A stretch of DNA of 32,000 nt from Schaalia meyeri (GCF_900105015.1 NZ_FNLK01000010.1:60001-92000), one strand, 5' to 3'; positions 331-27,104 are shown, numbered from the stretch's first letter. Made by a program: numbers and translations. The notes: a model not told the origin generated them from the sequence alone.

Positions 331-1308
331 ATGGCCGCACACAGCGGGCGCCCCGGCGCCATCCGTAAGAAGGGCACGAAGAAGGGCGCGCAGGTGGGCA
401 CGGGCGGGCATTCTCGCCGCCGCCTCGAAGGCAAGGGACCCACCCCCAAGGCCGAGGATCGGCCCTACCATCCCGCCCACAAGCGCAAGATTACGCGCGA
501 GGCCCGCGAGGCTCGCGAGGCCGCCATCGCACGGGCCCGCGCCAAGTCCTCCATCCGAATCAAGCCGGGCCACGAGCTGATCGCCGGCCGTAACCCCGTC
601 GCCGAGGCGGCCCGGGCCGCGGTCCCGATCGAGCGCGTCTTCATCCTGGATAACGTCAAGGATGATCGCGTGGAAGAGGTCGTGCGCCTGGCCTCAGCTA
701 TGGGCGCCCCGGTCTATGAGGTCACCCGCCGAGACCTGGATGTCGCGACCGACGGGGCCGTCCACCAGGGCGTGGCAATCGAGGTGCGCGGCTACGAGTA
801 CGCCGACGCCTCCGATCTCATCGCGGGTTCCCTGCAGCAGCTGGGTCACCCCCTGCTGATCGCCCTCGACCAGGTGACGGACCCCCACAACTTGGGTGCG
901 GTCCTGCGCAGCGCGGGAGCGTTCGGGGCGGACGGCGTTCTGATCCCTGAGCGCCGCAGCGCGGGTGTCAACGCGACCGCCTGGAAGGTGTCGGCGGGCG
1001 CCGCGGCGCGCGTGCCCGTGGCACGTGCGACGAACCTGGTGCGCGCCCTGGAGGAGGCGAAGCGGGCCGGTTACTTCGTGGTCGGCCTGGACGGTGGTGG
1101 GGATGCGCCGCTGCGGGGCCTGCCGCTGGCGGACGGACCGCTCGTCATCGTGACGGGCGCGGAGGGCACCGGCCTGTCGCGGCTGGTGCGCGAGACCTGC
1201 GACCAGATCGTGTCCATCCCGATCGCCTCGACCGTTGAGTCCCTGAACGCCGCGGTCGCCACGGGCATCGCCCTGTACGAGGTGGCGTCGCTGCGCGCCC
1301 AGGATTAA
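331..1308 (+). CDS. rlmB: 23S rRNA (guanosine-2'-O)-methyltransferase RlmB, SpoU/TrmH family
   Basis: 325-aa ORF with GAGGAG a few nt upstream of ATG 331. It has a Lys/Arg-rich N-terminal extension and SpoU-type motifs (LDQVTDPHNLGAVLRSAGAFG, IVTGAEGTGLS, IPIASTVESLNAAVATGIALYE). Confidence 0.9.
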   Translation: MAAHSGRPGAIRKKGTKKGAQVGTGGHSRRRLEGKGPTPKAEDRPYHPAHKRKITREAREAREAAIARARAKSSIRIKPGHELIAGRNPVAEAARAAVPIERVFILDNVKDDRVEEVVRLASAMGAPVYEVTRRDLDVATDGAVHQGVAIEVRGYEYADASDLIAGSLQQLGHPLLIALDQVTDPHNLGAVLRSAGAFGADGVLIPERRSAGVNATAWKVSAGAAARVPVARATNLVRALEEAKRAGYFVVGLDGGGDAPLRGLPLADGPLVIVTGAEGTGLSRLVRETCDQIVSIPIASTVESLNAAVATGIALYEVASLRAQD

Positions 1309-1476: not shown

Positions 1477-1767
1477 TCAGTTTCCCCACAACGCGGAGAC
1501 CTTTTGCTCCGCTTCGCTGTAGGCCTCCAGCGCCGATTCCAGCGCCTTTTTATTGGCCGTCAGGCGCTCTGCGATCTGCCGCAGTTGCTTTTCGTCCCGG
1601 ATGATGCGGTCCAGCGCCGCGGTCGCCGCCTCACCTTCCCAGTTGTTTGCCAGAAATGCTGCTGTCTGTGGGACGCCGTCGATGCGCGCCTCGAGTTCCT
1701 GGGCTCGTGCCCCCAGGGTGGTGGCCAGGGACTGGAGTTCGCCCGCGTTGACGAATATCTCTGTCAC
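1477..1767 (-). CDS. WXG100-family protein (ESAT-6-like type VII secretion substrate), 96 aa
   Basis: GTG start at 1767-1765 preceded by AAGGAAG. The track ORF 1477..1947 extends further upstream with non-protein-like sequence. The product is about 96 aa and predicted helical, with a central W-E-G (WxG) at residues 43-45 and a C-terminal YSEAE (YxxxD/E export-type motif). Confidence 0.85.
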   Translation of the reverse strand: MTEIFVNAGELQSLATTLGARAQELEARIDGVPQTAAFLANNWEGEAATAALDRIIRDEKQLRQIAERLTANKKALESALEAYSEAEQKVSALWGN

Positions 1768-1950: not shown

Positions 1951-2616
1951 CTATAAAAACTCAGCAGCGAGCGTCTGATAGGTGGAGCCGTGCATCGTGC
2001 CGCGGTGGCTGCTACGAGCGTTTGCCGAAGAGCCGCGTCCTGTCCATGCCTCGTTCTTGGCGGCCTTGCGCATGATCGCGATGCTGCGCCAGTACAGGAC
2101 GTGATCCTTCGGCAGGTTGCCGCTGAGGAAGTAGCGTGGATAGCTCAGCAGGATTCCCTGCCGACCGAGGGCGTCCGTGAGTTCGGCGAGGGCCGTATCC
2201 ATGTACGCGTTGGTAACAGAGGGGTCCGATACTAGTTCAGCGTCGAAGCACCATAGCTCGCTCGCCGGGCGGCCCCCGACGGAGCTGGCGCGGGCAGCAA
2301 TGATGATCCGGGTCTTTTCCTGCCGGGCTCGCTTGACCGATTTGGGGGCGAGGGATGGAAAGATGTTAATGATCGGGATGTCTTCGATGGCTGGCGAGAT
2401 GAGGGAGTGTCGCAGGTCGCTGCCGGTGATGATCTCGGTGCCGACCCAGCCGTGCTTGGCGAGCTGGTCGCTCACCCCTGGGGTTTCTCCCCTGGCCCCG
2501 GTGGAGATCCAGTAGTCGACACAGCGTGAGACAGCCTGATGTGGGTTGGTCGCCACCTGTGCGACCATGTAGCGGTGTCGGTCGTAAAGCCTGCGCAGTG
2601 AGAAACGTGGGGTCAT
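1951..2616 (-). CDS. Paralog D of an unassigned tandem family (221 aa), intact
   Basis: ATG 2616-2614 overlaps the TGA of paralog C (ATGA). It shares LYDRHRYMVAQV, AVSRCVDYW, ELWCF and MDTALAELTDAL..GILL..P.YF..GNLPKDHV blocks with paralogs B and C. The longer track ORF (to 2856) is Pro/Arg-rich and overlaps C. Confidence 0.7.
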   Translation of the reverse strand: MTPRFSLRRLYDRHRYMVAQVATNPHQAVSRCVDYWISTGARGETPGVSDQLAKHGWVGTEIITGSDLRHSLISPAIEDIPIINIFPSLAPKSVKRARQEKTRIIIAARASSVGGRPASELWCFDAELVSDPSVTNAYMDTALAELTDALGRQGILLSYPRYFLSGNLPKDHVLYWRSIAIMRKAAKNEAWTGRGSSANARSSHRGTMHGSTYQTLAAEFL

Positions 2617-3320
2617 GAGCGGCCTCCACGCGAAAAGTGACTCGTGAATGGTGCAGTCGTGTCGCCCCGCGTGGCCGCGAGGCTGGCGGGTGCCAGGACG
2701 TGGTCGTCGGGCAGGTTCGCAGGATTGACGAGGCGTGGGGGCCCCAGGAGGATGCCCTGGCAGTGGAGGGATGCGTGCAGATACGCGTACACGCGGGTGA
2801 GGGGATCCGTGCCCGGCTGGGCGCGCTGGATGAGTCTGTCCCACGGGAAACACCATAGCTCGGTCGAGGCCCGCCCCGCGTATGTGGAGGGGTGGGCCGC
2901 GATGATGATGGTCCGCTTGTTGAGTTGTGCGCGCACGGCCTTCAACGTGAGGTACGCGGCGAGTCCTCCCAGCGCAACAACGAGAAAGGGGTCCGGGGAA
3001 CCGCCGGGCGCCTCAATTCCGACGAGGTCCGGCATCCGGGTTGTCTTGACGACGACCGTGAGTTCGGTGCCTGACCAGCTGCGGTTCGCGAGCTCCTTGG
3101 CTATCGCGCGCGACTCTCCCGAGACGTTGATAGCGCGCCAGAAGTCGACGCACCGCGCGACCGCCTCGTCGGGCGGGCACGACACGTCGAACACCGTCAT
3201 GTGACGGCGTTGAAAAACAGGGTGCTTTCGTGCGATGATCCGAAGGTGGGCAGTGCGGATTCTAGGTAAGGAATTGCGAGACCCGTCGCTACTCTTCCCG
3301 CCTGCCTGGTGGATGCCCAT
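2613..3320 (-). CDS. Paralog C of the tandem family (235 aa), intact
   Basis: ATG 3320-3318 overlaps the TAA of paralog B (TAATG). Family homology (VFQRRHMTVFDV vs LFDRRRFAAYQV / LYDRHRYMVAQV) extends upstream of the internal ATG at 3200, so the 3320 start is preferred. It contains AVARCVDFW, ELWCF and GILLGPP...LPDDHV. Confidence 0.65.
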   Translation of the reverse strand: MGIHQAGGKSSDGSRNSLPRIRTAHLRIIARKHPVFQRRHMTVFDVSCPPDEAVARCVDFWRAINVSGESRAIAKELANRSWSGTELTVVVKTTRMPDLVGIEAPGGSPDPFLVVALGGLAAYLTLKAVRAQLNKRTIIIAAHPSTYAGRASTELWCFPWDRLIQRAQPGTDPLTRVYAYLHASLHCQGILLGPPRLVNPANLPDDHVLAPASLAATRGDTTAPFTSHFSRGGRS

Positions 3321-3535
3321 TAGCGATTGTTGTTCGTTCGTGTATCGGTCTTGGCAGTACGTTGCATTGTCACCATATTTGCCCTGCCAAAGGGGTGGCT
3401 TTCGGGAAGGCTCCCTCCGAGGAAATAATTTGGAGGCCCCAGTATGATCCTTTGCTTCGTGAGAGAATTCGTGAGGTCGTTCAGGGCTGTATCCATGAAT
3501 CCGTTCGTATCTGAATCCGCTGATAGGCCTTTGGA
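3320..3535 (-). pseudogene. Paralog B, C-terminal fragment, separated from its N-terminal part by the IS
   Basis: The frame not listed in the track reads ...KGLSADSDTNGFMDTALNDLTNSLTKQRIILGPPNYFLGGSLPESHPF...NNNR*, matching the C-terminal block of paralogs A and D. It joins in frame to 4972-5360 once the IS and one TSD copy are removed. Confidence 0.8.
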
Positions 3536-3557
3536 GGCTCTTCATAATTGAGGGTGT
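3536..3557. repeat. IS left terminal inverted repeat
   Basis: GGCTCTTCATAATTGAGGGTGT is the exact reverse complement of 4950-4971. Confidence 0.9.
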
Positions 3558-3654
3558 GGGGGTGGTATGCGGGGTTCGGTGTGTCGTGGCCGGGTAGGGG
3601 TCGAGGTCTTCCGATGATGGGGGTTCCTACACCGTCCATCCGAAAGACCTCGAC

Positions 3655-4965
3655 ATGTCCAATGCTACCTTTGGTCGCCCTGACCTGAGCGCCTTCACGG
3701 GCCTGGATGACCTAGGACTGGAAGTGATGGGTCAGCGTGTAGGAGGCGATCGGACCGTCTTGGCCTGCAAGGTAGTGGGTGAGGATCGGTGGTGCCGACA
3801 GTGTGGGGGCGAGGGCGTCGTACGCGACACGGTGATCAGGCGCTTGGCTCACGTACCCTACGGGTGGCACCCCACCATGTTGCACGTGAGCGTGCGCCGC
3901 TACCGCTGCCAGACGTGTGCTCACGTGTGGCGTCAAAACATGAGTGCAGCAGCCGATCCGCGCGCGAAGCTCTCGCGCGCAGCGGTGCGCTGGGCGCTGG
4001 TGGGCCTGGTGGTCCACCATCTGACGGTGGCGCGCATCGCCGACGTATTGGCCGTGTCATGGAACACTGCCAATACCGCGATCTTAGGTGAAGGCCAGCG
4101 CATACTCATCGATGATCCTGATCGTTTCGAGGGAGTGTGCGTCATCGGTGTTGATGAGCACGTGTGGCGCCACACCCCTTACGGCGACAAATACGTCACC
4201 GTCATCTTGGACTTGACTCCTATACGAGACCGTCGTGGTCCCTCCCGGCTCCTGGATATGGTCCCAGGCCGCTCCAAGCAGGTCTTCAAAACCTGGCTCT
4301 CTTCCCAGCCCGACACGTGGCGCGAGAACATCGAGGTCGTAGCGATGGATGGATTCACCGGGTTCAAAAGCGCAGCCGCTGAAGAACTCTCAGACGCAAC
4401 CGCGGTCATGGACCCCTTCCACGTCGTACACCTTGCCGGTGATGCTCTCGATGAGTGTCGCAGGCGCATCCAGCAAGAACTCCACCACCGGCGTGGGCGT
4501 GCCACCGATCCCCTGTACAAGGCCCGCAGAATGTTACACACCAGATCCTGCCTGCTCACCCCGCGCCAACAACACCGGATCCTCGACCTGTTCGCCAGCG
4601 ATTGCCACGTCGCCCTCGAAGTCACCTGGAGCGTCTACCAGAGTATTATCGACGCCTACCGCGATCCCAATAAAATCCGCGGTAAGGCCCTGATGCAAGC
4701 CGAAATAGACCGTCTCAGCAACGCGGGTGTCCCTCGCTCCCTCACGGAGATCATCACACTGGGAAGAACGCTCAAACGCCGATCCCGGGACATCCTGGCT
4801 TACTTCGATCATCCACACACCAGCAACGGTCCTACCGAAGCGATCAACGGACGTCTCGAACACCTACGCGGATCCGCACTCGGGTTCCGAAACCTCACCA
4901 ACTACATCACCCGCTGCCTCCTCGAAACAGGAGGATTCAGACCCCAACTACACCCTCAATTATGA
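3655..4965 (+). CDS. ISL3-family transposase (436 aa)
   Basis: N-terminal CxxC...CxxC zinc-finger pattern (CRQCGG ... CQTCAH) followed by a long DDE-type region, which is the ISL3 transposase layout. The stop codon lies inside the right IR. Confidence 0.85.
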   Translation: MSNATFGRPDLSAFTGLDDLGLEVMGQRVGGDRTVLACKVVGEDRWCRQCGGEGVVRDTVIRRLAHVPYGWHPTMLHVSVRRYRCQTCAHVWRQNMSAAADPRAKLSRAAVRWALVGLVVHHLTVARIADVLAVSWNTANTAILGEGQRILIDDPDRFEGVCVIGVDEHVWRHTPYGDKYVTVILDLTPIRDRRGPSRLLDMVPGRSKQVFKTWLSSQPDTWRENIEVVAMDGFTGFKSAAAEELSDATAVMDPFHVVHLAGDALDECRRRIQQELHHRRGRATDPLYKARRMLHTRSCLLTPRQQHRILDLFASDCHVALEVTWSVYQSIIDAYRDPNKIRGKALMQAEIDRLSNAGVPRSLTEIITLGRTLKRRSRDILAYFDHPHTSNGPTEAINGRLEHLRGSALGFRNLTNYITRCLLETGGFRPQLHPQL

Positions 4966-4971
4966 AGAGCC
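4950..4971. repeat. IS right terminal inverted repeat
   Basis: ACACCCTCAATTATGAAGAGCC is the exact reverse complement of 3536-3557. Confidence 0.9.
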
Positions 4972-5360
4972 CCTTTGGACTCGAAACACCAAAGCTCACT
5001 GACATCCCTGCCCTGCTTCGAGTTAACACGGGCGACGATAGAAATCCAGGTCTTCTCTTGGACGGCTCGGGCCACCTTCTTAGGAATCAGAGGCCTCAGG
5101 AGAGTGCGTGGAAGGTCATTATTAAACGGTGAGAGGAAAAAACTACGCAGGGTACTTCCAAATATTAGTTCAGTCCCCGCCCACCCATGCTGGGCGAATT
5201 GGTCCCGCATGCCCGAAACCTCGCTGTGTGCACCGATAGAGACCCAAAAATCCTTACAGCGAGCAACGGCATCGTGCGGAGTCAGTGTCACCTGGTAGGC
5301 TGCGAAACGCCGCCGATCAAACAGCTTATTACCAGGTGTTGGTGGGGTTATCGAAGCCAT
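4972..5360 (-). pseudogene. Paralog B, N-terminal fragment, truncated by the IS
   Basis: ATG 5360-5358 with GGAG 7 nt upstream. It contains LFDRRRFAAYQV, AVARCKDFW and ELWCFESKG, then reads into the IS and stops (..ALHN*). Confidence 0.8.
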
Positions 5361-5875
5361 GTGATATCTCCGGGTTGGTCGGGATAATAGGGTTGTTGTT
5401 CTTTGTATCTCGGCGAAGTCTCATCACACCGAGGTCGGAAAACACATGATCGCGGGGGAGGTCGCCGCCTCGGAAGAAATGGGGCGTGCCCAGCAAGAGG
5501 CTCTGCTTGGCGAATGCTTCCCCGATGTCTGCGAGCGTGGACTTCATGAAAGCGTCCGTGAGAGCGGGTTCCCTGAACGAATCTTTCACGAGGAAGCGAA
5601 ACGTGCAGTGGCGATCCGTCCCGCCGATCGTAAATTGGCTGCCGATGAAACCGCGTTGTGCGTCCTGGATTAGACTGAGTACGCCGTCGCCAATGTTAAC
5701 GACGGTCTGATTGATCGGGTGGAAGGCCATCAAAAGAAGACCACTTGCGTCTTCGCCCTGTGCGAAAGTTCCCCACTGATTCAGGAAGCGGCGCATCTCG
5801 GGGAGATGATCGGATCCCTGGCGCCAAGCACTTGCTGGGCGAGCGATAGGTCCGCATACTCGACGGATAGTGTCA
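5329..5875 (-). pseudogene. Paralog A: apparent +1/-1 frameshift near 5800-5815 (or a shorter 155-aa protein starting at ATG 5796)
   Basis: ATG 5875-5873 has a GAGGA RBS and encodes MTLSVEYADLSLAQQV..., which resembles the family N-terminus, but it stops after 31 codons. Family homology (PEMRRFLNQW, then LTDAFMKSTLADIGEAF..SLLLGTPHFFRGGDLPRDHV) continues in another frame down to the stop at 5329. Confidence 0.5.
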
Positions 5876-6020
5876 TGATTCCTCGTTATGTGTCGAAGCT
5901 CTGGTGGTTGGTTTCCGCCGACGTTGTTTCCTGAGCTCGGCGGCGAGCTGTTTTCCCTGTAGGTGAAAGTAGCACAGGTAGTCAGAGTTCGTCGATGCAT
6001 GAGCAGGCCGACTCGCGGGC

Positions 6021-6032: not shown

Positions 6033-6527
6033 GTGAGCATCCTTGGAACCGTGATCGTCGGCGTCGTCATCGCGATCGGAGTGGTCGGCGCGGTCGTGCA
6101 GATCTGGCCCTCTTCGCCCCTCATCGGCGGTGCGATCCTGGTGTGGGCGTGGATGAGCGGCACGCGCGCCGCGTGGGTCGTCCTGGCCCTCACGGTCGTC
6201 ATCCTCACAGTGGGAACGGTACTCAAATACGTGATCCCCGCGCGCGGCATGAGCAAGGCCGGGATCCCCCAATCAACCCTCATCTGGGGCGGCATCGGCG
6301 GCCTCATGGGCTGGTTCCTGGGCCTGCCCGTCGGCCTCCTCCTGGGCATGATCGCGGCCATCTTCCTGGTCGAATACCTGCGCAGCCGCGAAGCGTCCAC
6401 GGCCTGGAAATCCACCCTCCACGCACTCAAGGCGTACGGCTGGACCATCGCCATCGAACTGTTCGCAGCGCTGGCCTCCGCGACCCTGTGGGGCATCGGC
6501 GTTGCCATGGTCGCCTCCGGAAGCTAA
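6033..6527 (+). CDS. Small integral membrane protein, DUF456-like
   Basis: 164-aa ORF with four or so hydrophobic helices and Gly-rich segments (IWGGIGGLMGWFLGLPVGLLLGMIAAIFLVEYLRSR), which is reminiscent of DUF456. Confidence 0.6.
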   Translation: MSILGTVIVGVVIAIGVVGAVVQIWPSSPLIGGAILVWAWMSGTRAAWVVLALTVVILTVGTVLKYVIPARGMSKAGIPQSTLIWGGIGGLMGWFLGLPVGLLLGMIAAIFLVEYLRSREASTAWKSTLHALKAYGWTIAIELFAALASATLWGIGVAMVASGS

Positions 6528-7922
<1,395 letters not shown>

Positions 7923-11953: not shown

Positions 11954-14422
11954 ATGTTCGAACGCTTTACCGACCGCGCCCGCCGGGTCGTCGTGCTCGC
12001 ACAGGACGAGGCGCGCGGTCTCAAGCACAACTACATCGGCACGGAGCACCTGCTGCTCGGCCTGATCTCCGAGGGGGAGGGGGTTGCCGCCAAGGCCCTG
12101 GAGGCGATGGAGATCAAGGGCGAGGCCGTGCGCGCCTCGGTCATCGAGATCATCGGCGAGGGCGAGAAACCGGTCGAGGGGCACATTCCGTTCACCCCGC
12201 GCGCCAAGCGTGTCTTTGAGCTGAGCCTGCGCGAGGCCCTGCAGCTGGGCCACAACTACATCGGCACGGAGCACCTGCTGCTCGGCCTGCTCAAAGAGGG
12301 CGAGGGCGTGGCCGCTCAGGTCCTGACCAAGCAGGGAGCCGACCTGGCGCAGGTGCGCCAGACCGTCATCCAGATGCTGTCCGGCTATCAGCGCGGCGAG
12401 GAGGAGGGGCGCGAGTCCGTGGGTGCCGGCGTGGGGGGCAGCGGCGGCCCGGAGCGTTCGAACTCGGCGATCCTGGAGCAGTTCGGCCGCAACCTGACGC
12501 AGGCCGCGCGGGAGAATAAGCTCGATCCTGTGATCGGTCGTCGCACCGAGATGGAGCGCGTCATGCAGGTCCTGTCGCGCCGCACGAAGAACAACCCGGT
12601 GCTGATCGGCGAGCCGGGCGTCGGTAAGACCGCCGTCGTTGAGGGCCTGGCCCAGTCGATTGTGGCGGGCGACGTGCCCGAGACGATCAAGGGTCGTCAG
12701 ATTTACAGCCTCGACATGGGTTCTCTGGTGGCGGGTTCGCGCTACCGCGGCGATTTCGAGGAGCGCCTGAAGAAAGTCCTGAAGGAGATTCGCACGCGCG
12801 GCGACATCATCTTGTTCATTGACGAGATCCACACCCTCGTGGGTGCCGGTGCCGCGGAGGGGTCGATTGATGCCGCCCAGATGCTCAAGCCGATGCTGGC
12901 GCGCGGCGAGCTGCAGACGATCGGCGCGACCACGAACGACGAGTACCGCAAGTACATCGAGAAGGACGCGGCGCTGGAGCGGCGTTTCCAGCCGGTGAAG
13001 GTCGAGGAGCCCAGCGTCGACGAGACGATGGAGATCCTCAAGGGATTGCGCGACCGCTACGAGGCCCACCACCGCGTCATTATCACGGATGCCGCGATCC
13101 AGGCGGCCGCCGAGCTGGCGGATCGTTATGTTTCGGATCGTTTCTTGCCGGACAAGGCGATTGACCTGGTTGACGAGGCCGGGGCGCGTCTGCGCATCCG
13201 TCGCATGACCGCTCCGCCGGAGCTGCGCGAGCTGGACGAGAAGATCGCCGAGGTTCGCCGCAACAAGGAATCGGCGATCGACGATCAGGATTTTGAGAAG
13301 GCCGCCTCCCTGCGTGATGAGGAGTCGAAGCTGGCCGAGGAGCGCAAGTCGAAGGAAGAGGCCTGGAAAGGCGGGGCGTCCGACGAGATCGCGGAAGTGG
13401 GGGATCAGGAGATCGCCGAGGTCCTGGCCATGTCGACAGGTATTCCGGTCGTTCGCCTGACCCAGACGGAGACCACGAAGCTGCTCAAGATGGAGGAGGA
13501 GCTGCATAAGCGCGTCATCGGACAGGACGAGGCGGTCAAGGCGCTGGCCCAGTCGATCCGCCGCACGCGCAGCGGATTGAAGGATCCGAACCGTCCGGGC
13601 GGTTCGTTCATCTTCGCCGGCCCGACGGGCGTGGGCAAGACGGAGCTGGCGAAGGCCCTGGCGGAGTTCCTGTTCGGGGACGAGGATGCGCTGGTCCAGC
13701 TGGATATGTCGGAGTTTTCTGAGAAGCACACGGCCTCGCGCCTCTTCGGCGCCCCTCCCGGCTACGTCGGTTACGACGAGGGCGGGCAGCTCACGGAGAA
13801 GGTGCGTCGCAAGCCTTTCTCGGTCGTCCTTTTCGACGAGGTTGAGAAAGCCCACCCGGACATCTTCAATTCTTTGCTGCAGATTCTGGAGGAAGGCCGC
13901 CTGACGGACTCGCAGGGCCGCAAGGTGGACTTTAAGAACACCGTCATCATCATGACGACGAACCTGGGTACACGCGACATCAATAAGGGTGTTTTGACGG
14001 GCTTCCAGTCGGCGGATCACCAGACGCACGACTACGCGCGGATGAAGTCGAAGGTGTCGGAGGAACTCAAGCAGCACTTCCGCCCGGAGTTCCTGAACCG
14101 CGTCGACGACACGATCGTGTTCCCGCCGCTGACCAAGCTGGAGATCGCCCGCATCGTCGATCTGATGATCGCGAAGCTGGCGAAGCGCATGGAGGCACAG
14201 GATATGCGCCTGCAGTTGACGGATGAGGCGCGCGAGCTCCTGGCCGACGTGGGTTTCGATCCGGTCCTGGGGGCGCGTCCGTTGCGTCGCGCGATTCAGC
14301 GAGAGATCGAGGACGCGCTGAGCGAACGTATCCTGTTCGGAGAGCTACAACCCGGTCAGGTTGTCACTGTTGGCGTGCAGACGAAGGGCGACGAGCGCAC
14401 GTTCACCTTTAACGGAGAGTGA
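11954..14422 (+). CDS. clpC: ATP-dependent Clp protease ATP-binding subunit ClpC
   Basis: Canonical [14 protein letters not shown]-terminus with GAGGAG upstream of ATG 11954. It has duplicated Clp_N repeats ([12 protein letters not shown] twice) and two AAA+ modules ([16 protein letters not shown]). Confidence 0.95.
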
Positions 14423-14485
14423 TCTATTCGCCAGTTGTGTGAGGTTGACAAGCTTTCAATATTTGCGGAACGACCCGTCGATCTG

Positions 14486-14608: not shown

Positions 14609-17600
14609 ATGACCGCGCGAGCGCGACGAAACGTGACTAGCCTGAGGCGACGCCTGCCGTCGGCCATTCTCATGCTGATCGTCGGGGCGCTCTGTATTGC
14701 GGGCATCATCTACAAGGGCGCCGAGGTGACCCAGGTGAACGTCAACGACGGCGGAATCTGGGTGACAAACAAGTCCAAGCAGATGGTCGGCCACCTCGAC
14801 TACGAGGCCCGTATCCTCGACGGCGCGCTGCGCACCGAGGCGACCAACTTCGACGTCGGACAGGCCGCCGAAACCGTCACGGTGTCCGACCTGAGCGCAC
14901 TCACCGTTTCCCCGGTCAACGTGACGCAGGTGGCCCTGGGATCCCCGACCGTTTTGCCCCCCGGCGCCAGCGTGATGCAGGGCGGCGACGTCCTGGGCGT
15001 CCTGAACGCGGCCGACGGCACCCTGTGGACGACCTCTGCGGCTTCCCCCAGCTCGAATAACCTCTCCGACGGGGCGGCCCTGGCCTCGAACATGGGGGCC
15101 AGCGCCTTCGTGACCGGCACGGATGGTACCGTGTACTCCCTGTCCGCCTCCGGCACGCTCACGACCGTGAAGCACCAGGGGTCGATCGACGAAACGAAGA
15201 CCAGCCAGGTGAGCGGCATCCCCGAGGACGCGCGGCTCACCATGACGGCCGTCGGCGACCAGGTTGTCGCCCTAGATACCGCCTCCAACACCCTCTTCCT
15301 GCCCGGGAACAAGACGCTGGATCTGAGCGCGGTCGGCGTCGAGTCGGGTGGCGTCCTACAGCAGGCCGGCCCAAAGGATAATTCCGTCCTGCTGGCCACC
15401 GCCTCGTCCCTGGTGGAGATCCCCCTGCGGGGCGGGAACCCCGTGATCACCCCCGCGGCCGAGGGAGCCCCCAGCGGCCACCCCGCAGCCCCCGTGCGTC
15501 ACGAGGGCTGCGCCTACAGCGCGTGGAGCGGATCGGGCGCGTACATACGGTCGTGCGACGACCCCTCCGCCAACAGGCAAATGATCGTCGATACGCTCAC
15601 GACGGCTCAGGAGCTGGTTTTTAGGACCAACCGCAAGGCCATCGTCCTCAACGACGTCGCGCAGGGCAGCGTGTGGCTGCCCGACTCCAACATGGTGCTC
15701 ATGGACAACTGGGACGAGGTCGAGAACCAGCTCGAAGAGAGCGAGGAAGAGCAGGACAGCCCCGAGCTGACCAACGAGGTCGCGGACCCTGAGCAGCGCG
15801 AAGAAAACACGCCCCCCGAGGCCGTGGATGACGACTTCGGCATCCGCCCCGGTCGCTCAACCGTCCTGCCCGTCCTGGATAACGACTCCGACCTGGATGG
15901 AGACGTGCTCACCGCATCCCCGACCTCCCAGCCCGGTTGGGGCTCGGTCGTGGTGGCGCGCAGCGGGCGTGCCCTGCAGATAGAGAACGTATCGGCCAGC
16001 CAGACAGGTTCCACGTCGTTTAGCTACGAGGCATCCGACGGGCAGGCATCCGCCTCCGCGCGCGTCCAGGTCACGATCCACCCCTACGGGCAAAACGAGG
16101 CGCCCGTCCAGCTGCGGTCCTCCACCGTCAAGATCGGCGCCGGCGCGCAGATCCAGTACCAGGCGCTCAGCGACTGGCGCGACCCGGACGGGGATCCCAT
16201 CTACCTGAAGGATGTCCAAGCCCCCGGCGGATTGAACGTGTCGTTCATCGAGGACGGCACGTTGACGATCACCGAGGAAGGCAGCGCGGTCGGCCCGAAG
16301 ACCGTCGTCCTGACCGTCGCTGACGACCAGGGCGGCGAGGCGCACGGCGAACTCGTCGTCAACGTGCAGGAGGCCGGTAACCTGCCGCCTTCGGCCAACG
16401 GAGACCTTTTCCAGGCGCACCCGGGCGAGACCGTCACCCTGGACCCGCTGAAGAACGACACGGACCCCAACGGCGATCCGCTCTCCCTCGCGGCTGTGTC
16501 GGGCACCCCGGCGGGCGTGACCGTCACTCCCGACCTGGATCGGGGAACCATTGATTTTCGGGCGCAGCAGCCCGGGTCCTACTCCTTCGCGTACACGGTT
16601 TCCGACGGTCTCGCGACGACGCTGGGGATCATCCGCGTCGAAGTCGTGGCCTTCTCCGCGTTGCCCCCCGTCGCCGAAAACGACACGGCCGTCCTGCCGC
16701 AGGGCGGGTCCGTGCTGGTCAATCCGCTGGGTAACGACTATGACCCTGCCGGCGGCATACTCTCCGTCACGTCGGTCGACACCTCGAGGGCGCCAGGTAT
16801 CCAGGTCGCCCTCATCGAACGCCACCTGCTGCGCGTGACGGCCCACGCCGGTCTGTCCGAGACGGTGACCTTCTCCTACACGGTGTCTAACGGGCAGGCG
16901 AGTGCCACCGCCGAGGTGACGGTCATCCCCGGTGCGCCCGACCGTTCCGACATGCCACCCATCCTCAAGCCGGACCGCGCCAAGGTGCGCGTCGGCGACA
17001 TCGGCACCGTGTCCGTGCTGTCGAATGACCGTTCCCCGGCCGGGTTGAACCTACAGGTCGAGTCGACCCTCCAATACGACCAGGCTTCTCCCGTGGGAAC
17101 CCCCTTCGTGACGGGCAACCAGGTGCGCCTCGAGGCTGGAACGACTCCCGGGATCCTAGAGGTCATCTACACGGTCATCGATTCCGCGGGCAACCGCGCG
17201 TCCAGCACGGTCACTTTCGAGGTCATCCCCGACTCCGAGAACAACGAGGCGCCGCGCCCGCGCACCCTCAACGCCTGGACCAGCGCCGGACAGAACGTGC
17301 GTATTCCCGTCACCCTGAACGGCATTGACCCGGACGGGGATTCCGTCACCCTGGTGGGTGTGGATTCTTCGCCCACGCAGGGGGTGGCGACCGCCTCCAC
17401 CACGTGGATCGATTACACGCCGAACCGCGGCGCGGTGGGTACCGACACCTTTACCTACACGGTCGAGGACCGCAGGGGCGCCCGCGCTTCGGCGCGCGTG
17501 CGTGTCGCGATATCCCCCGCCCCTTCGTCCAATCAGAACCCCGTGGCCGTCCCGGACACGGTGCAGGCCCGGCCTGATCGTGTGCTCACCATCAACGTGC

Positions 17601-20461
17601 TGTCCAACGATGTCGACCCCGACGGTGATTCGCTGTCCCTGGATGAGGGCGGGCTGTCCACCGCGACATCCGAATTGGCGCCGCAGGTGCGTTCGGCCTC
17701 GACGATCCAGGTGCGCACCCCCTCGGAGCCCGGCAGCTACGCGGTGGCTTACACGGTCTCGGATGGGCGCGGCGGGTCCGCGGTGGGCCTGGCCACCATC
17801 TACGTGTCCCCCGACGTTGCCCTGAAGGCGCCCGTCGCGCGCGACGATTATGTTGCCTACACGGAACTGCCCGACGACGGATCGGCGGTGCGCGTGCGCG
17901 TCACCGAGAACGACGAGGATGCTGATGGATCGGTCGACGAGCTGACGGTCACCACCGGTGAAGACGGGGTGAGCGTGAACGGCCAGGACCTGCTGATCCC
18001 CGTCTCCGACCAGCTCCGCCTGGTCGTCTACACCGTGACCGACCGTGACGGCTTGACCAACTCCGCCGTCGTGACGGTCCCCGGACGCAACACGACCGCC
18101 CCCTTCCTGAACAACGCGAATCTGCCCATCGAGGTGGACGCGGGCACCCAGCGCACGATCAGCCTCTCCGACTATGTGACGGTGCGTTCGGGCCGCTCCC
18201 CGCGGCTCGCGGCGGACTCCTCCCCGCTCGCTCAAACGGGCCTGGACTCCGTGGTCGCCGGGGGAGACTCGCAGCTGACGATCAGCGCATCCCAGGGTTT
18301 CTCCGGTCATACGGCCTTTGCCATCCAGGTGAGCGACGGAGACGACAGCGGTGCGCTCTCCGCGACCCTGTCCGTGCCCGTGCACGTGCGCGCCACCCAG
18401 AACCAACCCCCCACGTTTACGCCGACCACCGTGCGCGTCAAACCCGGGGGCAATCCCGTCAGCCAGAACCTGGCACTCGGCGTGTCCGATCCCGAGGGCG
18501 CCGACCCCTCAACCTTCACGTACGCGCTCGGGGCCGCCCCCGACGGTATCACCGCCTCGCTGTCGGGATCGACGCTGAGCGTTTCAGCCGCCGAGGGGAT
18601 ATCCCGCGGCCAGGTCGGTGCCATCGAGGTGACCGTGACCGACACGGACGGAAACTCCGTCTCCGGTTCCGTCCCCGTCGAGGTGGTGGATTCCACGAGG
18701 CCGCTGGTCTCTGTGCCCGCCACTTACCAGCTGCATACCCGGGTCGGCGAGAAGGTGACGATTGATGTTGCCCGTATAGCTACCAAACCGTCCCCGGATT
18801 CGTTGCTGGCCCTGGAGGGCCCGGCCACCACCTTAGGTAGTGCACAGGTTGATACCAAGGGCACGGAGGTGTCGATCACCCCGTTGAGCACCGAAACCGT
18901 CACGGTGACCTATCGCATCACCGACCGGTTGGGCGACCTCTCGCGCGCCGTACAGGGGACCCTCACCGTTACGGTGGACGGCGGCCCGCCGGATGCCCCG
19001 ACAAGCGTGCACGCCGAGCTCGTGGGAAAGAAAAAAGCCCGTGTTACCTTCACCCCGGGTAAAGACAAGGGCAGTAAAATTCAGGGCTACAGGGTGTATG
19101 CGACGACGGGCGAGGAGATGACCGCGGAATGCCCCCTCCGCGACGACCACGTCGTGTGCAAGGTCAAGGGCCTAGAATTGGGGCGGGACTACTCTTTCAC
19201 CGTCGTTGCCCGTAACGCGGACGGCGAATCGAAGCACTCACTCCCCTCGAATCCGATTACGACGAGCGACAAACCGGGTCAGATGGTTCGCCCCATCGTG
19301 ACCCCTGGCGACTCCGAGCTGAAGGTGTCGTGGGTGCCTCCGGAGAGTAACGGCGGATACTCGATCGACCACTACGAGTTGAAAATTAACGATAAGGCCA
19401 CTGGTGTGCCCTACGACGACACGTCGGCCAACATTCCCGCCCTGAACGGGCGCGACTACTACGTGCAGGTTCGAGCGGTCAACCGCGCGGGCAAGGGCCC
19501 CTGGTCCCCGCCCGCCTGGGGCCGCCCACGCCCCTCGCACGTGAACCCCGATCAGCCGAGGGTCTCCCTGAACGCCCAGAGGGCTGCATCGGGAGAGGTC
19601 AGCGTGAGCGTCTCCTGGACGGTCGGCTCCAGCGGGGGCAGCGGCTGGGGCAATACGACGGTCAACGTGAATGGCGATCCCATCACCGTCCCCGGGGGCA
19701 TTCGCTCCTGGAAGGGAACGTTGCCAGCTTCGGTGAACAGCGTGACTGTGATCGTGACGGTCTCCAACGTCGAAGGGGATACCGCTACGTCCAGTCCGCA
19801 GACCAGGAGGGTGCCCCCGAATGGGCCGCCGCTGACACCGGACGCGCCGACCATTACCGCCACGGGTAATTCCGGCCAGCTTCTGGTCTCGAACGTCAGG
19901 GTCAAGCCCGGCAGGGGCTACGTGGCCGATGACCTGACCGTGTTCTGGGGCACGAGCGGGGAGGAATGCCAACAAAAGGCGCGCGCTCGCGACCCAAACC
20001 GGCACATCCACGGCACTAACTTCATCTGGCGGGGCGGCTCCGATACCAACGGGGTGCTCCAGAGGTTCTTCTTCTGCCAGATCTCCACGTCCGACGAGGT
20101 ATCGGACAGCGTGGTGGCTACCGGCACGCCGAAGGACAACAACGCCGGTGGAGACGAGAAAGACTGGGAGAACGTGGACATCCGCACGAAACGTGAAGAG
20201 ATCGACGGTGGCTTCGAGATAAAAATCAAGCACACCAAGGAGATCAAGGGCATGTGCAGGTACGGGTGTCGATTGAAGGTCGTTGATAGCGCGACCGGGA
20301 CAAGGATCTACACGCAGAGCGAGGTGATCGTTTCGGAGAACGAGACCCCGACCCTGCGTGCGTACTGGAACCAGCTGCCTTCGGACCCCAAGGAGTATCG
20401 CATCGGTTTGTACATCACCCTGTCGTCTGGGAGAGACATAATCAAGTACGTCGACCGTTAG
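14609..20461 (+). CDS. 1950-aa N-terminally anchored surface protein with cadherin/Ig-like Ca-binding repeats and FN3 domains
   Basis: Arg-rich N-terminus plus one TM helix (LPSAILMLIVGALCIAGIIY). This is followed by a ~330-aa domain with propeller-like DG(T)-repeats and an acidic linker (EESEEEQDSPE...). Roughly ten ~100-aa modules follow, at least 8 with recognisable NDxDxDGD-type motifs (LDNDSDLDGD, KNDTDPNGD, SNDVDPDGD, ENDEDADGS ...). Then come FN3-like modules (PPDAPTSV..GYRVYA..YSFTVVARN; SELKVSWVPPESNGG..YYVQVRAVN) and a ~190-aa Cys-containing C-terminal domain. Confidence 0.85.
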   Translation: MTARARRNVTSLRRRLPSAILMLIVGALCIAGIIYKGAEVTQVNVNDGGIWVTNKSKQMVGHLDYEARILDGALRTEATNFDVGQAAETVTVSDLSALTVSPVNVTQVALGSPTVLPPGASVMQGGDVLGVLNAADGTLWTTSAASPSSNNLSDGAALASNMGASAFVTGTDGTVYSLSASGTLTTVKHQGSIDETKTSQVSGIPEDARLTMTAVGDQVVALDTASNTLFLPGNKTLDLSAVGVESGGVLQQAGPKDNSVLLATASSLVEIPLRGGNPVITPAAEGAPSGHPAAPVRHEGCAYSAWSGSGAYIRSCDDPSANRQMIVDTLTTAQELVFRTNRKAIVLNDVAQGSVWLPDSNMVLMDNWDEVENQLEESEEEQDSPELTNEVADPEQREENTPPEAVDDDFGIRPGRSTVLPVLDNDSDLDGDVLTASPTSQPGWGSVVVARSGRALQIENVSASQTGSTSFSYEASDGQASASARVQVTIHPYGQNEAPVQLRSSTVKIGAGAQIQYQALSDWRDPDGDPIYLKDVQAPGGLNVSFIEDGTLTITEEGSAVGPKTVVLTVADDQGGEAHGELVVNVQEAGNLPPSANGDLFQAHPGETVTLDPLKNDTDPNGDPLSLAAVSGTPAGVTVTPDLDRGTIDFRAQQPGSYSFAYTVSDGLATTLGIIRVEVVAFSALPPVAENDTAVLPQGGSVLVNPLGNDYDPAGGILSVTSVDTSRAPGIQVALIERHLLRVTAHAGLSETVTFSYTVSNGQASATAEVTVIPGAPDRSDMPPILKPDRAKVRVGDIGTVSVLSNDRSPAGLNLQVESTLQYDQASPVGTPFVTGNQVRLEAGTTPGILEVIYTVIDSAGNRASSTVTFEVIPDSENNEAPRPRTLNAWTSAGQNVRIPVTLNGIDPDGDSVTLVGVDSSPTQGVATASTTWIDYTPNRGAVGTDTFTYTVEDRRGARASARVRVAISPAPSSNQNPVAVPDTVQARPDRVLTINVLSNDVDPDGDSLSLDEGGLSTATSELAPQVRSASTIQVRTPSEPGSYAVAYTVSDGRGGSAVGLATIYVSPDVALKAPVARDDYVAYTELPDDGSAVRVRVTENDEDADGSVDELTVTTGEDGVSVNGQDLLIPVSDQLRLVVYTVTDRDGLTNSAVVTVPGRNTTAPFLNNANLPIEVDAGTQRTISLSDYVTVRSGRSPRLAADSSPLAQTGLDSVVAGGDSQLTISASQGFSGHTAFAIQVSDGDDSGALSATLSVPVHVRATQNQPPTFTPTTVRVKPGGNPVSQNLALGVSDPEGADPSTFTYALGAAPDGITASLSGSTLSVSAAEGISRGQVGAIEVTVTDTDGNSVSGSVPVEVVDSTRPLVSVPATYQLHTRVGEKVTIDVARIATKPSPDSLLALEGPATTLGSAQVDTKGTEVSITPLSTETVTVTYRITDRLGDLSRAVQGTLTVTVDGGPPDAPTSVHAELVGKKKARVTFTPGKDKGSKIQGYRVYATTGEEMTAECPLRDDHVVCKVKGLELGRDYSFTVVARNADGESKHSLPSNPITTSDKPGQMVRPIVTPGDSELKVSWVPPESNGGYSIDHYELKINDKATGVPYDDTSANIPALNGRDYYVQVRAVNRAGKGPWSPPAWGRPRPSHVNPDQPRVSLNAQRAASGEVSVSVSWTVGSSGGSGWGNTTVNVNGDPITVPGGIRSWKGTLPASVNSVTVIVTVSNVEGDTATSSPQTRRVPPNGPPLTPDAPTITATGNSGQLLVSNVRVKPGRGYVADDLTVFWGTSGEECQQKARARDPNRHIHGTNFIWRGGSDTNGVLQRFFFCQISTSDEVSDSVVATGTPKDNNAGGDEKDWENVDIRTKREEIDGGFEIKIKHTKEIKGMCRYGCRLKVVDSATGTRIYTQSEVIVSENETPTLRAYWNQLPSDPKEYRIGLYITLSSGRDIIKYVDR

Positions 20462-20539
20462 GTCGGCTCTGCCAGCGGCCAGATCGGTTGACGACCCGAC
20501 GGACAAAAATACAACACGAACGAAGAGAAAAGGATACTC

Positions 20540-21505
20540 ATGTCACTGTCCATTGAGGACGCGACGCGTTTCGCCCAGGTTTTCAAGAGCCTCGTTAACG
20601 GTGTGTCCGTGGCGGTCTTGGATAAGCGCCAGGCCGTGCGGCTCGCGCTCACGACGATGTTCGCCGGCGGGCATCTGCTGCTTGAGGACGCCCCCGGCAC
20701 CGGCAAGACCGCGCTGGCACGCGCGATCAGCGCCGTCATTGATGGCACGCACTCGCGTATCCAGTTCACCCCGGACCTGCTGCCCTCGGACATCACGGGC
20801 GTCAACATGTTCAACCAGAAGACCGGCGAGTGGGTCTTCCACGCGGGCCCCGTTTTCGCGGAGATCGTCCTGGCGGACGAAATCAACCGCGCCTCGCCAA
20901 AGACGCAGTCCGCCCTCCTGGAGGTCATGGAGGAAGCTCAGGTCACGGTGGACGGCGTTCGCCGACCGGCCCCCCAGCCCTTCATGGTCATCGCTACCCA
21001 GAACCCCGTCGAGCAGGCCGGTACCTACCCGCTGCCTGAGGCCCAGCTGGATCGCTTCCTCATGAAGACCTCGATCGGCTACCCGTCGCGCAGCGCGATG
21101 ATCGACGTGCTGGACGGTTCGGCCGCGCCCGACCGTTCGAAGAACCTGCAGCCAATGGTCACGGGACGAGACATCGTCGCCTGGTCGTCCCTGGCGTCGG
21201 CGAACCACACGGACCGGGCCGTCCTGGACTACGTGGCCGCCCTGGCGGAGGCGACCCGTGAGGACGAGTCCTCGCTGCTGGGCGTGTCCACTCGCGGTGC
21301 GATCGGCATGGTGCGCTGCACCCGCGTGTGGGCGGCCGCGCAGGGGCGCAACTTCGTCCTGCCCGATGACGTCAAGGCACTCGCGGTGCCCGTGTGGGCA
21401 CACCGCATCGTCGTCGACCCGGACGCCGCGTTCTCCGGCGCGACCTCCGAGGGCGTCATCCAACGAGCTTTGACCTCGGTGCCTGCCCCGGCAGTGGGCG
21501 CCTAG
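20540..21505 (+). CDS. MoxR-family AAA+ ATPase
   Basis: 321 aa. Walker A DAPGTGKT, Walker B IVLADEINRASPKTQSALLEVMEE, and the MoxR-typical length and C-terminal lid. An AAGGA RBS is present. Confidence 0.9.
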   Translation: MSLSIEDATRFAQVFKSLVNGVSVAVLDKRQAVRLALTTMFAGGHLLLEDAPGTGKTALARAISAVIDGTHSRIQFTPDLLPSDITGVNMFNQKTGEWVFHAGPVFAEIVLADEINRASPKTQSALLEVMEEAQVTVDGVRRPAPQPFMVIATQNPVEQAGTYPLPEAQLDRFLMKTSIGYPSRSAMIDVLDGSAAPDRSKNLQPMVTGRDIVAWSSLASANHTDRAVLDYVAALAEATREDESSLLGVSTRGAIGMVRCTRVWAAAQGRNFVLPDDVKALAVPVWAHRIVVDPDAAFSGATSEGVIQRALTSVPAPAVGA

Positions 21506-21525
21506 GACGTCTATCGACAACCACG

Positions 21526-22755
21526 ATGGAAGGGAAGCGTTCGGAAAGCAACGACATGGTCTGGCACTCACGGGAGCAGGCCAGCGGTTCGCGTCCCCTC
21601 GCAAAGTTGGCGGGAGCGGTCACACCGATCGGATGGGCCGTTATCACGCTCATCTTCGTCGGCGTGGCGCTGGCAGCAGCACTCGAATGGGTCGAGGCCC
21701 TGGCGTGCGCGCTGGCGGGCGTCGTCACGTTGGTGCTGGCGGCCCTGCGCGTCGCGTGGAAGCCGCCGCACCTCGTGTCGATCCGCGTCCCTAACGAACG
21801 CATCGTCGCCGGACAGACGGCCGTCGGCGAGATCCTGGTGCGCAACGAGCGCTCCCGCCCCGTCCGATCCGGCATCATTGAGCTACCGATCGGGTCAGGC
21901 ACCGGCGAATTTGTCGTGCCCCCGTTGGGTGCCCGCAGGTCGTGGGACGAAATGTTCCTGATATCCTCGCGTCACCGTGGCCTCATCAACGTCGGGCCGG
22001 CGCGGTCGGTGCGATCCGACGCCCTGGGGCTCTTGCGCCGCGTGCGAGTGTGGGACGAACCCGTCGTCCTGCACGTGCACCCCCGAACGGTCCGCGTCCC
22101 TTTCGATGCGACCGGCTTTCAGCTGGACGTGGAGGGCGTGTCCACCGGCAAACTCTCCAGCTCGGACGTGTCGTTCCATGCGCTGCGTGACTACGAGCCG
22201 GGGGACGATCGCCGCGCCGTCCACTGGCAGTCGACCGCCCGTTTGGGCAAGCTCATCGTGCGCCAGTACGAAGAAACGCACCGTTCGCACCACGTCATCG
22301 TCCTGGACACGTCGCGCGACGCCTGGGATCACGATTCTTTCGAAACGGCCGTGTCGGTTGCGGCGTCGCTGGGCCTGGCTAACCTGCGCGAATCGCGTCC
22401 GGTGTCGGTAACCACGACCGACACGTGGCTGCCTTCCGGGGGCGCCATGCGTATGCTGGATGCCCTGTCCGAGGTGGGGGCCCGCTCCGGCGGCGATCTT
22501 TTCCTGCGCGTTCGCGAGGCCCTGGCTCAGCGCCCCGGCGTTTCCGCGCTCACGCTCGTGGTCGGTCCGAAGGTGACGGATGTGGATGCCGCGCACCTGG
22601 CGCGCCTGGCTCCCATCGATGTTCCCGTCTCCATCATCCGTATCGGCGGCGGCCGGGGCGGGCGTACGCGGCGGGATCTGGGGCGAGGGGTGCTCCTGGA
22701 CTGCTCCAAGCTGGATGACCTGCCGCGCATCATCGTCGCCGGGGGGCTGGCATGA
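21526..22755 (+). CDS. DUF58 (vWA-like) membrane protein, the usual MoxR partner
   Basis: Two N-terminal TM helices and the DUF58 signature ALRDYEPGDDRRAVHWQSTARLGKLIVRQYEE. The start is at ATG 21526 (alternative 21556). The track start at 21394 overlaps moxR. Confidence 0.8.
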   Translation: MEGKRSESNDMVWHSREQASGSRPLAKLAGAVTPIGWAVITLIFVGVALAAALEWVEALACALAGVVTLVLAALRVAWKPPHLVSIRVPNERIVAGQTAVGEILVRNERSRPVRSGIIELPIGSGTGEFVVPPLGARRSWDEMFLISSRHRGLINVGPARSVRSDALGLLRRVRVWDEPVVLHVHPRTVRVPFDATGFQLDVEGVSTGKLSSSDVSFHALRDYEPGDDRRAVHWQSTARLGKLIVRQYEETHRSHHVIVLDTSRDAWDHDSFETAVSVAASLGLANLRESRPVSVTTTDTWLPSGGAMRMLDALSEVGARSGGDLFLRVREALAQRPGVSALTLVVGPKVTDVDAAHLARLAPIDVPVSIIRIGGGRGGRTRRDLGRGVLLDCSKLDDLPRIIVAGGLA

Positions 22756-26968: not shown

Positions 26969-27044
26969 GAGCGATCACCTAATCGCGCCAGTTTTGTTGC
27001 GCGCAGCGCGTCTCTTCGTGGCGAGGCACCGGTTACGTCGCGTG

Positions 27045-27050
27045 TAGAAT
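27045..27050 (+). promoter_or_regulatory. Candidate -10 box (TAGAAT) in the kinase-phosphatase gap, bracketed by GGTTAC(C)GTCGCG direct repeats
   Basis: TAGAAT lies 54 nt upstream of ATG 27105. The repeats are at 27031-27042 and 27051-27063. Confidence 0.35.
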
Positions 27051-27104
27051 GGTTACCGTCGCGCGTAATCCCTCGCGCCCAACACAGTGGAAAGATGAAG
27101 GCAG

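Follow-up and report, generated by a model that had tools for sequence, protein, structure and literature searches.

A family of tandem paralogues beside a WXG100 gene in Schaalia meyeri and its candidate Esx-substrate cassette

What could be the function of a string of similar and partly damaged genes that adjoins the gene of a type VII secretion substrate? This question is raised by a stretch of 32,000 nucleotides (nt) from Schaalia meyeri (GCF_900105015.1, NZ_FNLK01000010.1:60001-92000), in the following called the window, with positions counted from its first letter. Four consecutive genes, A to D, are flanked there by rlmB (331-1308, plus strand) and DUF456/purA (6033-7922, plus strand), and these array genes as well as the adjoining WXG100 gene are all encoded on the minus strand. 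An original prediction, made from the sequence, had described them as four translationally coupled paralogues of an unassigned family, half of them decayed, and had considered them an immunity or accessory island. The family of B, C and D, here named FAM, is found in relatives as the last gene of a cassette with a candidate Esx substrate, and the window is a decayed copy of a variable island between DUF456/purA and rlmB. The cassette has not been described before, as far as the literature searched shows, and FAM is unannotated and lineage-restricted. FAM may well serve as immunity to the substrate, a role that has about an even chance of being correct and that is weighed below against its alternatives.

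The paralogue family and its cassette

Three of the four genes are clearly paralogues. After removal of an insertion sequence (IS) that splits it, B is 47% identical to D (E 1e-60) and 31% identical to C (E 5e-19), and C and D share 35% (E 2e-24). The sequence blocks that had been proposed to be common to all four genes were found in these three as well, and it is only A that does not belong in the row, being a chimeric remnant whose HCTFRF, formerly equated with the central ELWCF, aligns to RYYAFR of the first domain. The junctions had been given exactly, with an overlap of 32 nt between A and B, TAATG between B and C, and ATGA between C and D. Also the statement that no known domain can be recognised holds, as none of A to D has a match in Pfam, NCBIfam or PADLOC, and for the FAM model Foldseek found nothing in the PDB below E 0.001. 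FAM has very few members: among 1.84 billion representative proteins, a profile search detected 74 at E <= 0.001, and all named relatives from other searches are from Actinomyces, Schaalia or Pauljensenia. One of the 74 proteins (P0139, 2497 aa, seven matched stretches) was rejected as a spurious member, since it is an unrelated repeat adhesin. A catalytic triad (Cys of ELWCF, His of DH) was likewise dropped, as neither residue is kept in Pauljensenia or Microbacteriaceae members.

The original prediction had called for a search of relatives for an association with type VII secretion, and this association was found: FAM follows cassettes of three other genes. Complete cassettes are present at 8 syntenic loci, always in the order BIG, MID, WXG100 and then one to six FAM genes. 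BIG is our name for the gene of an all-helical candidate Esx substrate of about 400 aa that is unrelated to FAM. At the syntenic loci, BIG has about 406 aa, MID is an acidic, helical protein of about 137 aa, and FAM, with about 190 aa, is in these cassettes always the last gene. Homologues of BIG with 30-37% identity are found also at unrelated genomic sites, namely in one Microbacteriaceae metagenome-assembled genome (MAG) and on three metagenomic contigs. In these four distant loci, BIG, MID and WXG100 are followed in this order by a fourth gene, which encodes 184-203 aa, and the genes are so tightly coupled that start and stop codons overlap or abut. The family of this fourth gene includes proteins from Microbacterium and Aeromicrobium and has no Pfam match, and it is homologous to FAM, with an hhalign probability of 97.7% (E 2e-12, 146 columns) when alignments of 29 and 23 sequences are compared, and of 79% with a smaller alignment. 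FAM is therefore the conserved fourth and last gene of an Esx-substrate cassette, present as a single copy in the distant cassettes. Apart from the matches of WXG100 and of an ISL3 element, nothing significant was found in Pfam, NCBIfam or PADLOC for BIG, MID and the distant fourth genes.

Only in oral Actinomycetaceae is FAM amplified to strings of two to six divergent, recombining paralogues. At least 9 loci in Schaalia, Actinomyces or Pauljensenia-type genomes and MAGs carry FAM-only arrays of two to five copies with full-length open reading frames (ORFs), bounded directly by DUF456 and rlmB, where FAM-only means that BIG, MID and WXG100 are missing at that site; BIG may be present elsewhere in those genomes. 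In a neighbour-joining tree, FAM falls into at least five old subfamilies, each of which usually occurs once per genome. Fragments and frameshifted copies are frequent across the loci, and recombination of tandem copies is seen in gene C of the window when compared with the copies C1 and C2 of an S. meyeri-like locus (L042), in a breakpoint of S. meyeri W712, and in the chimeric gene A.

The ratio of nonsynonymous to synonymous substitution rates (dN/dS) has a median of 0.24-0.38 in orthologous FAM genes, most of them from FAM-only loci, and there is no signal above 1 in the pooled dN/dS. In two subfamilies the central loop reaches 0.58 versus 0.22-0.35 in the flanking domains. Orphan FAM copies are thus maintained by selection, with the loop as the least constrained part. 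The values of the other cassette genes are 0.12 for BIG, 0.14 for MID and 0.24 for WXG100.

Two closely related species-level genomes (L025 and L026), whose FAM arrays share 92-98% aa identity, differ in the presence or absence of the entire BIG-MID-WXG100 block, and the effector part has therefore been gained or lost recently.

The decayed copy in the window

The features of the window, with matches to the FAM profile hidden Markov model (HMM) given for the paralogues, are:

1477-1767, minus strand: WXG100 gene (WXG2), 96 aa, GTG start, intact
1951-2616, minus strand: FAM paralogue D, 221 aa, domain intact; HMM positions 6-198 of 200, E 3e-94
2613-3320, minus strand: FAM paralogue C, 235 aa from the ATG at 3320; HMM positions 11-196, E 2e-64
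3320-3535, minus strand: 3' part of FAM paralogue B; HMM positions 139-199; holds the target-duplication copy at 3528-3535
3536-4971, plus strand: ISL3 insertion sequence of 1436 bp; transposase ORF 3655-4965, 436 aa
4972-5360, minus strand: 5' part of FAM paralogue B; HMM positions 5-132, E 4e-37; duplication copy at 4972-4979
5329-5652, minus strand: what is left of a fifth FAM paralogue (B' type) in A; BLASTP E 6e-33
5653-5876, minus strand: BIG stub in A, the first 76 or so codons, with 1 nt lost from codon 18 (about 5825)
14609-29311, plus strand: Esr-like gene set, with genes of a 1950-aa Big_9/cadherin/fn3 protein (Ig-repeat filament), a MoxR ATPase, a DUF58 protein, an 893-aa transglutaminase-core protein, a Ser/Thr kinase, a PP2C phosphatase and a 444-aa FHA protein

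Gene A joins a frameshifted BIG start to two pieces of a fifth FAM paralogue that is otherwise lost. In the stub, the stretch 'MTLSVEYADLSLAQQVL', followed by 'RQGSDHLPEMRRFLNQW...', matches the BIG of a relative; compared with residues 28-76 of the BIG at locus L003, the stub has 49% identity (E 1.6e-12), and it covers positions 19-75 of the BIG HMM (E 6e-16), while positions 1-18 are found in another frame. The FAM-derived part is limited to residues 44-129 of a 155-aa ORF, with an HMM match at positions 131-196. It consists of residues 54-78 of the paralogue (5652-5596) and of residues 127 to the end (5595-5329), so that the central 49 residues are lost, and it aligns accordingly to residues 54-78 and 127-188 of the first FAM of the cassette of S. 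odontolytica UMB0018 with a 49-residue gap. As a 5' BIG start is joined here to mid-FAM sequence, A is a deletion scar. The deletion joined BIG, at codon 76 or so, to sequence midway in the first FAM copy, and took away the rest of BIG, MID, the first WXG100 gene and the first third of the fifth paralogue. A second, internal deletion in A followed, ISL3 later split B, and C recombined, with D and the second WXG100 gene as survivors. The earlier statement that there is no toxin gene in the window thus has to be corrected, since the trace of a candidate effector gene is present as the BIG stub inside A. Of BIG, only this wreck is left in S. meyeri reference strains, including the experimentally used W712, and the accessory genes are kept.

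That one copy is split by an insertion sequence was recognised correctly. The element in B is of the ISL3 type, with a DDE_Tnp_ISL3 transposase (NF033550, E 7e-107; PF01610, E 2e-56), inverted repeats at 3536-3569 and 4938-4971 (34 nt, 85% complementary), and an 8-bp target duplication, CCTTTGGA, at 3528-3535 and 4972-4979. Removal of the element and of one duplicate, which joins 3320-3535 to 4980-5360, restores an intact B ORF of 197 aa. S. meyeri W712 and three metagenomic S. meyeri-type contigs have a clean empty site, and the insertion is therefore recent and strain-specific. In these four other S. meyeri-type sequences B is intact, with 198 aa in L040, L041 and L043.

A and B are indeed damaged, but to call half of the array decayed understates the case, as the tail of D is frameshifted and C is a recombinant mosaic. 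D has a GGAGG ribosome-binding site upstream, and its ATGA junction overlaps the stop codon of C. In comparison with W712, a 1-nt deletion near the 3' end changes its length from 201 to 221 aa; it lies in a G/C run at about 2030-2045 in which W712 and most cluster members keep the base, and the last 8 or so residues are replaced. The protein QQC43836.1, encoded on CP066065.1, is identical to gene D. C is intact and combines two C-type copies as a mosaic: it is 98% identical to copy C1 of L042 across 554 nt and C2-like thereafter, and the breakpoint in W712 is at a different position from that in the window. The NCBI call of 195 aa would put the start of C at the ATG at 3200. The predicted A/T-richness of the block stands, including the three counts in 60-nt lines, which were exact (27, 31 and 45 of 60): without the IS, the array has 59.8% G+C versus 67.2% in the remaining window.

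The gene next to the array is a WXG100 gene, as had been claimed. Its product carries NWEGEA as the WxG motif and AYSEAE (YSEAE) as the C-terminal YxxxE motif, and it matches PF06013 with E 7e-10 and 39.5 bits, above the Pfam cutoff of 27.3 bits; the match to TIGR03930 of NCBIfam (E 4e-10, 39.7 bits) is under the cutoff of 44.85 bits. The L042 haplotype has two WXG100 genes, and WXG2 is the counterpart of the second one, which is placed after D; its position downstream of the array in the window is thereby explained. In W712, the orthologues of D and of this WXG100 gene are ADJ76_06660 and ADJ76_06665. A relocation of the gene had also been considered, and this idea was dropped because L042 shows that two WXG100 genes are ancestral. 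These two genes of L042 (2629-2916, after MID, and 4996-5283, after the last FAM gene) are about 75% identical across a stretch of 149 nt.

The Esr-like set, seven consecutive genes that are 9 kb away from the array, agrees in its components with the Esr pathway of epibiont sensing and response, a regulator of Esx in Schaalia, as given in the main text and figure legends of a preprint (PMC13622651). An adjoining ORF next to the FHA gene (29610-30887, minus strand, 425 aa) has no Pfam match at E <= 1e-5. At the corresponding locus of Pauljensenia hongkongensis (CP017298, L011), a 904-aa EccB-mycosin fusion, which belongs to the T7SS (type VII secretion system) core, is encoded just past clpC, and two more divergent FAM copies are found beyond rlmB, outside the usual site (coordinates for the fusion and the extra copies: 1-312, 13900-14463 and 15469-16011).

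Immunity-type function and its alternatives

The structure models give some orientation on what BIG and FAM may do. The BIG model (predicted local distance difference test score (pLDDT) 72, predicted template modelling score (pTM) 0.71) consists of helices only: a hairpin at the N-terminus, two long helices (residues 236-334) that enclose an invariant W-x-G, and at the C-terminus a helix pair or hairpin of moderate hydrophobicity. Its best fold match in the PDB is the ESX-1 substrate EspB (Foldseek probability 0.91, E 0.16), and a few BIG members have sub-threshold Pfam matches to WXG100 or EspC. The predicted likeness to EspB is weak and should be taken as a lead, not as proof; PDB sequence searches with BIG, the BIG profile and the FAM profile gave chance matches only. 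FAM is modelled as an alpha/beta protein (pLDDT 71.6, with 68 residues below 50) that has a low-confidence loop of variable length at residues 67-98 and after it a basic C-terminal helix. The loop is moderately hydrophobic in some subfamilies, and neither a signal peptide nor a clear membrane span was found in FAM. Foldseek matches of FAM in the PDB are weak and helix-grip-like, with BamC-N (E 0.02, probability 0.87, TMq 0.27), KA1 (probability 0.82-0.85) and SRPBCC, all at E >= 0.013 and TM <= 0.30.

One FAM subfamily (256-295 aa; L007:10603-11373, P0128) carries an insertion in the central loop with repeated, glycine-zipper-like 'TVGEVxGFVGSAA' units, which hints at a contact of the loop with the membrane or with a partner.

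An immunity role of FAM is ranked first because FAM is the last gene of the cassette, forms strings of non-identical copies, persists without a substrate gene at the site, and undergoes recombination and decay. That an array of this type beside a type VII substrate is an immunity or accessory island is hence still the best-supported reading, in view of cassette position, recombining strings and orphan arrays, and only the role itself is still something that we infer. We consider it about evenly balanced whether FAM are immunity-like proteins against BIG-type effectors. If they are, the producer of such an effector would need FAM for self-protection, and non-producers would keep orphan strings against BIG variants delivered by their neighbours. 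The target of FAM would be the membrane-active hairpin at the C-terminus of BIG, which it would bind or block on the inner side of the membrane, and the contact would be made via the fast-evolving, partly hydrophobic central loop and the basic C-terminal helix.

Several points weigh against such a role. BIG has no recognisable toxin domain in Pfam, NCBIfam and PADLOC scans, its purifying selection is strong over the whole length (the dN/dS of 0.12 mentioned above), its variation is not limited to a C-terminal payload, and it may be a substrate with a structural or host-directed task, for which no immunity would be required. A pairing of the two proteins is not reflected in the alleles either: L003 and L023 have BIG genes that are 97% identical and first FAM types that differ, and generally the FAM type adjoining the WXG100 gene does not follow the BIG allele. 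The FAM-only loci count for less if BIG is encoded elsewhere in the same genomes. The immunity proteins known for T7SS toxins that act on membranes are themselves integral to the membrane, unlike FAM, which is mostly soluble with a maximum hydropathy of 0.6-1.9 and whose best Foldseek match in the PDB is at E 0.013. Furthermore, T7SS core genes are absent from the window.

The main rival of the immunity role, possible if doubtful in our view, is that FAM is a dedicated cytosolic chaperone or stabiliser of the BIG/WXG100 pair and that the arrays serve several substrates. A chaperone could well be encoded by the single conserved FAM that ends every cassette in the distant lineages, it would need no signal peptide or membrane span, and a strongly conserved BIG without toxin domain would be a fitting client. 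Sizes and order (406, 96 and 195 aa) also parallel EspA-EspC-EspD and EspE-EspF-(EspG)-EspH, where EspD and EspH are YbaB-like ESX-1 chaperones, EspD for EspA/EspC and EspH for EspE/EspF, and EspH has been found to bind EspE and to be required for its secretion (PMC6107294). However, FAM gave no match to YbaB_DNA_bd, EspG or any other Pfam family at E <= 1, YbaB was absent from the Foldseek results and EspG from the Foldseek PDB matches, and the exhaustive profile search contained no mycobacterial relatives. Against a chaperone speak also the at least 9 loci at which two to five divergent FAM copies are under purifying selection without BIG, MID and WXG100 at the site, as it is not expected that a chaperone is kept and multiplied without its client. 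These same FAM-only arrays, being common, would agree with the view that FAM acts independently of BIG, be it as a peripheral-membrane or lipid-binding helix-grip-like protein or as another defence factor, and shares a recombination-prone island with the Esx cassette. The weak fold likeness to BamC-N, KA1 and SRPBCC, with probabilities of at most 0.87, would fit this, as would the glycine-zipper-like loop insertions of the one subfamily and an Esr-type threat-sensing cluster at 9 kb distance. Such independence is nevertheless rather unlikely, because the BIG-MID-WXG100-FAM order is kept with overlapping codons at unrelated sites in Microbacteriaceae and other lineages at only 30-37% BIG identity, which favours a functional link over hitch-hiking; FAM also has no match in PADLOC.

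Very improbable is the view that the block is non-functional, decaying DNA, in other words the pseudogene graveyard of a lost cassette. The chimeric and frameshifted A, the IS-split B, the frameshifted tail of D and the frequent fragments at other loci give this impression, but C and the domain of D are intact in the window, B is intact in the four other S. meyeri-type sequences, orthologues are full-length ORFs in many loci with a dN/dS of 0.24-0.38, and translational coupling and ribosome-binding sites have been retained.

Going beyond an immunity role of FAM, the cassette might be an undescribed Esx effector module of Saccharibacteria-hosting Actinomycetota, with a membrane-inserting helical BIG effector and with the recombining FAM strings as a new class of T7SS immunity or guard proteins that bind the membrane peripherally, wired to the nearby Esr pathway and shaped by an arms race with epibionts or neighbouring Actinomycetaceae. 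Taken as a whole, this picture is quite unlikely to be correct. Regardless of this, the conserved four-gene cassette with its lineage-specific family, which in genetic terms resembles the immunity strings of Firmicutes, is a candidate open to testing for a part in conflicts of abundant human oral bacteria with other bacteria or with epibionts. Esx effectors and immunity factors of Actinomycetaceae have been almost unknown so far: the first secreted Actinomycetaceae Esx effectors were reported in a preprint of 2026, the same year in which the first toxin-immunity pair of a type VII system in Actinomycetota was published.

Comparison with known systems

With the ESX-1 operons espA-espC-espD and espE-espF-espG-espH, the cassette shares a substrate of about 400 aa, a WXG100-like partner of about 100 aa and an accessory protein of about 185 aa in the same order. 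FAM differs in not being YbaB-like, with no similarity even by profiles, and MID has no counterpart there; EspD and EspH, in turn, are not amplified into arrays and are not kept without substrates.

Immunity genes in strings are known from T7SSb toxin loci of Staphylococcus and Streptococcus, where esaG (DUF600) and tipC have been described (Garrett et al. 2022, PMC9484751). There is no relationship to FAM in sequence or fold, and none of the FAM copies matches EsaG/DUF600, TipC or TsaI in Pfam, NCBIfam or PADLOC. Phylum (Actinomycetota) and type of secretion system are different, and BIG lacks any known toxin domain, such as a nuclease or phosphatase; its neutralisation by FAM is presumed. 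The organisation is nevertheless similar: FAM genes are tandem, non-identical paralogues that follow the gene of a type VII substrate and those of its small helical partners, they are present with or without the candidate effector gene (as judged here at the site), and their recombination results in changes of copy number, mosaics and fragments.

Closer in phylogeny are the Eat/Tap loci, which encode T7SS-secreted toxins of Mycobacteriales and other Actinomycetota with a Tap helper and downstream immunity genes (Benedict et al. 2026, PMC13444075). At Actinomycetota T7SS toxin loci, the number of downstream immunity genes varies and helical partners are present, and for 47% of the protein sequences surveyed there no function is predicted (PMC13444075). 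Like there, the phylum is Actinomycetota, and a helical-bundle substrate of 400-1000 aa is combined with one or two small helical partners and with downstream immunity candidates of varying number. Unlike the Tap helpers, which are encoded upstream, MID and WXG100 are downstream of the large gene, and EatI is a secreted lipoprotein that inhibits a glycosidase, whereas FAM is predicted to be cytoplasmic and has no sequence relationship to it.

A further system comes from the genus itself. According to the main text and figure legends of the preprint that also provides the Esr component list (Wang et al. 2026, PMC13622651), Schaalia has a functional Esx system that secretes effectors, Saccharibacteria induce it via the Esr sensing pathway in S. 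odontolytica and S. meyeri W712, and candidate substrates outside the esx cluster adjoin WXG100-like genes in S. odontolytica. The validated effectors in these parts of the preprint, AesA and AesB, are different proteins with no immunity partner stated there, and neither the cassette nor a FAM-like family is described in them. The locus described here nonetheless resembles those candidates, as it belongs to the same genus and combines an all-helical candidate substrate with a WXG100-like gene, and W712, in which the induction of Esx was reported, carries this locus.

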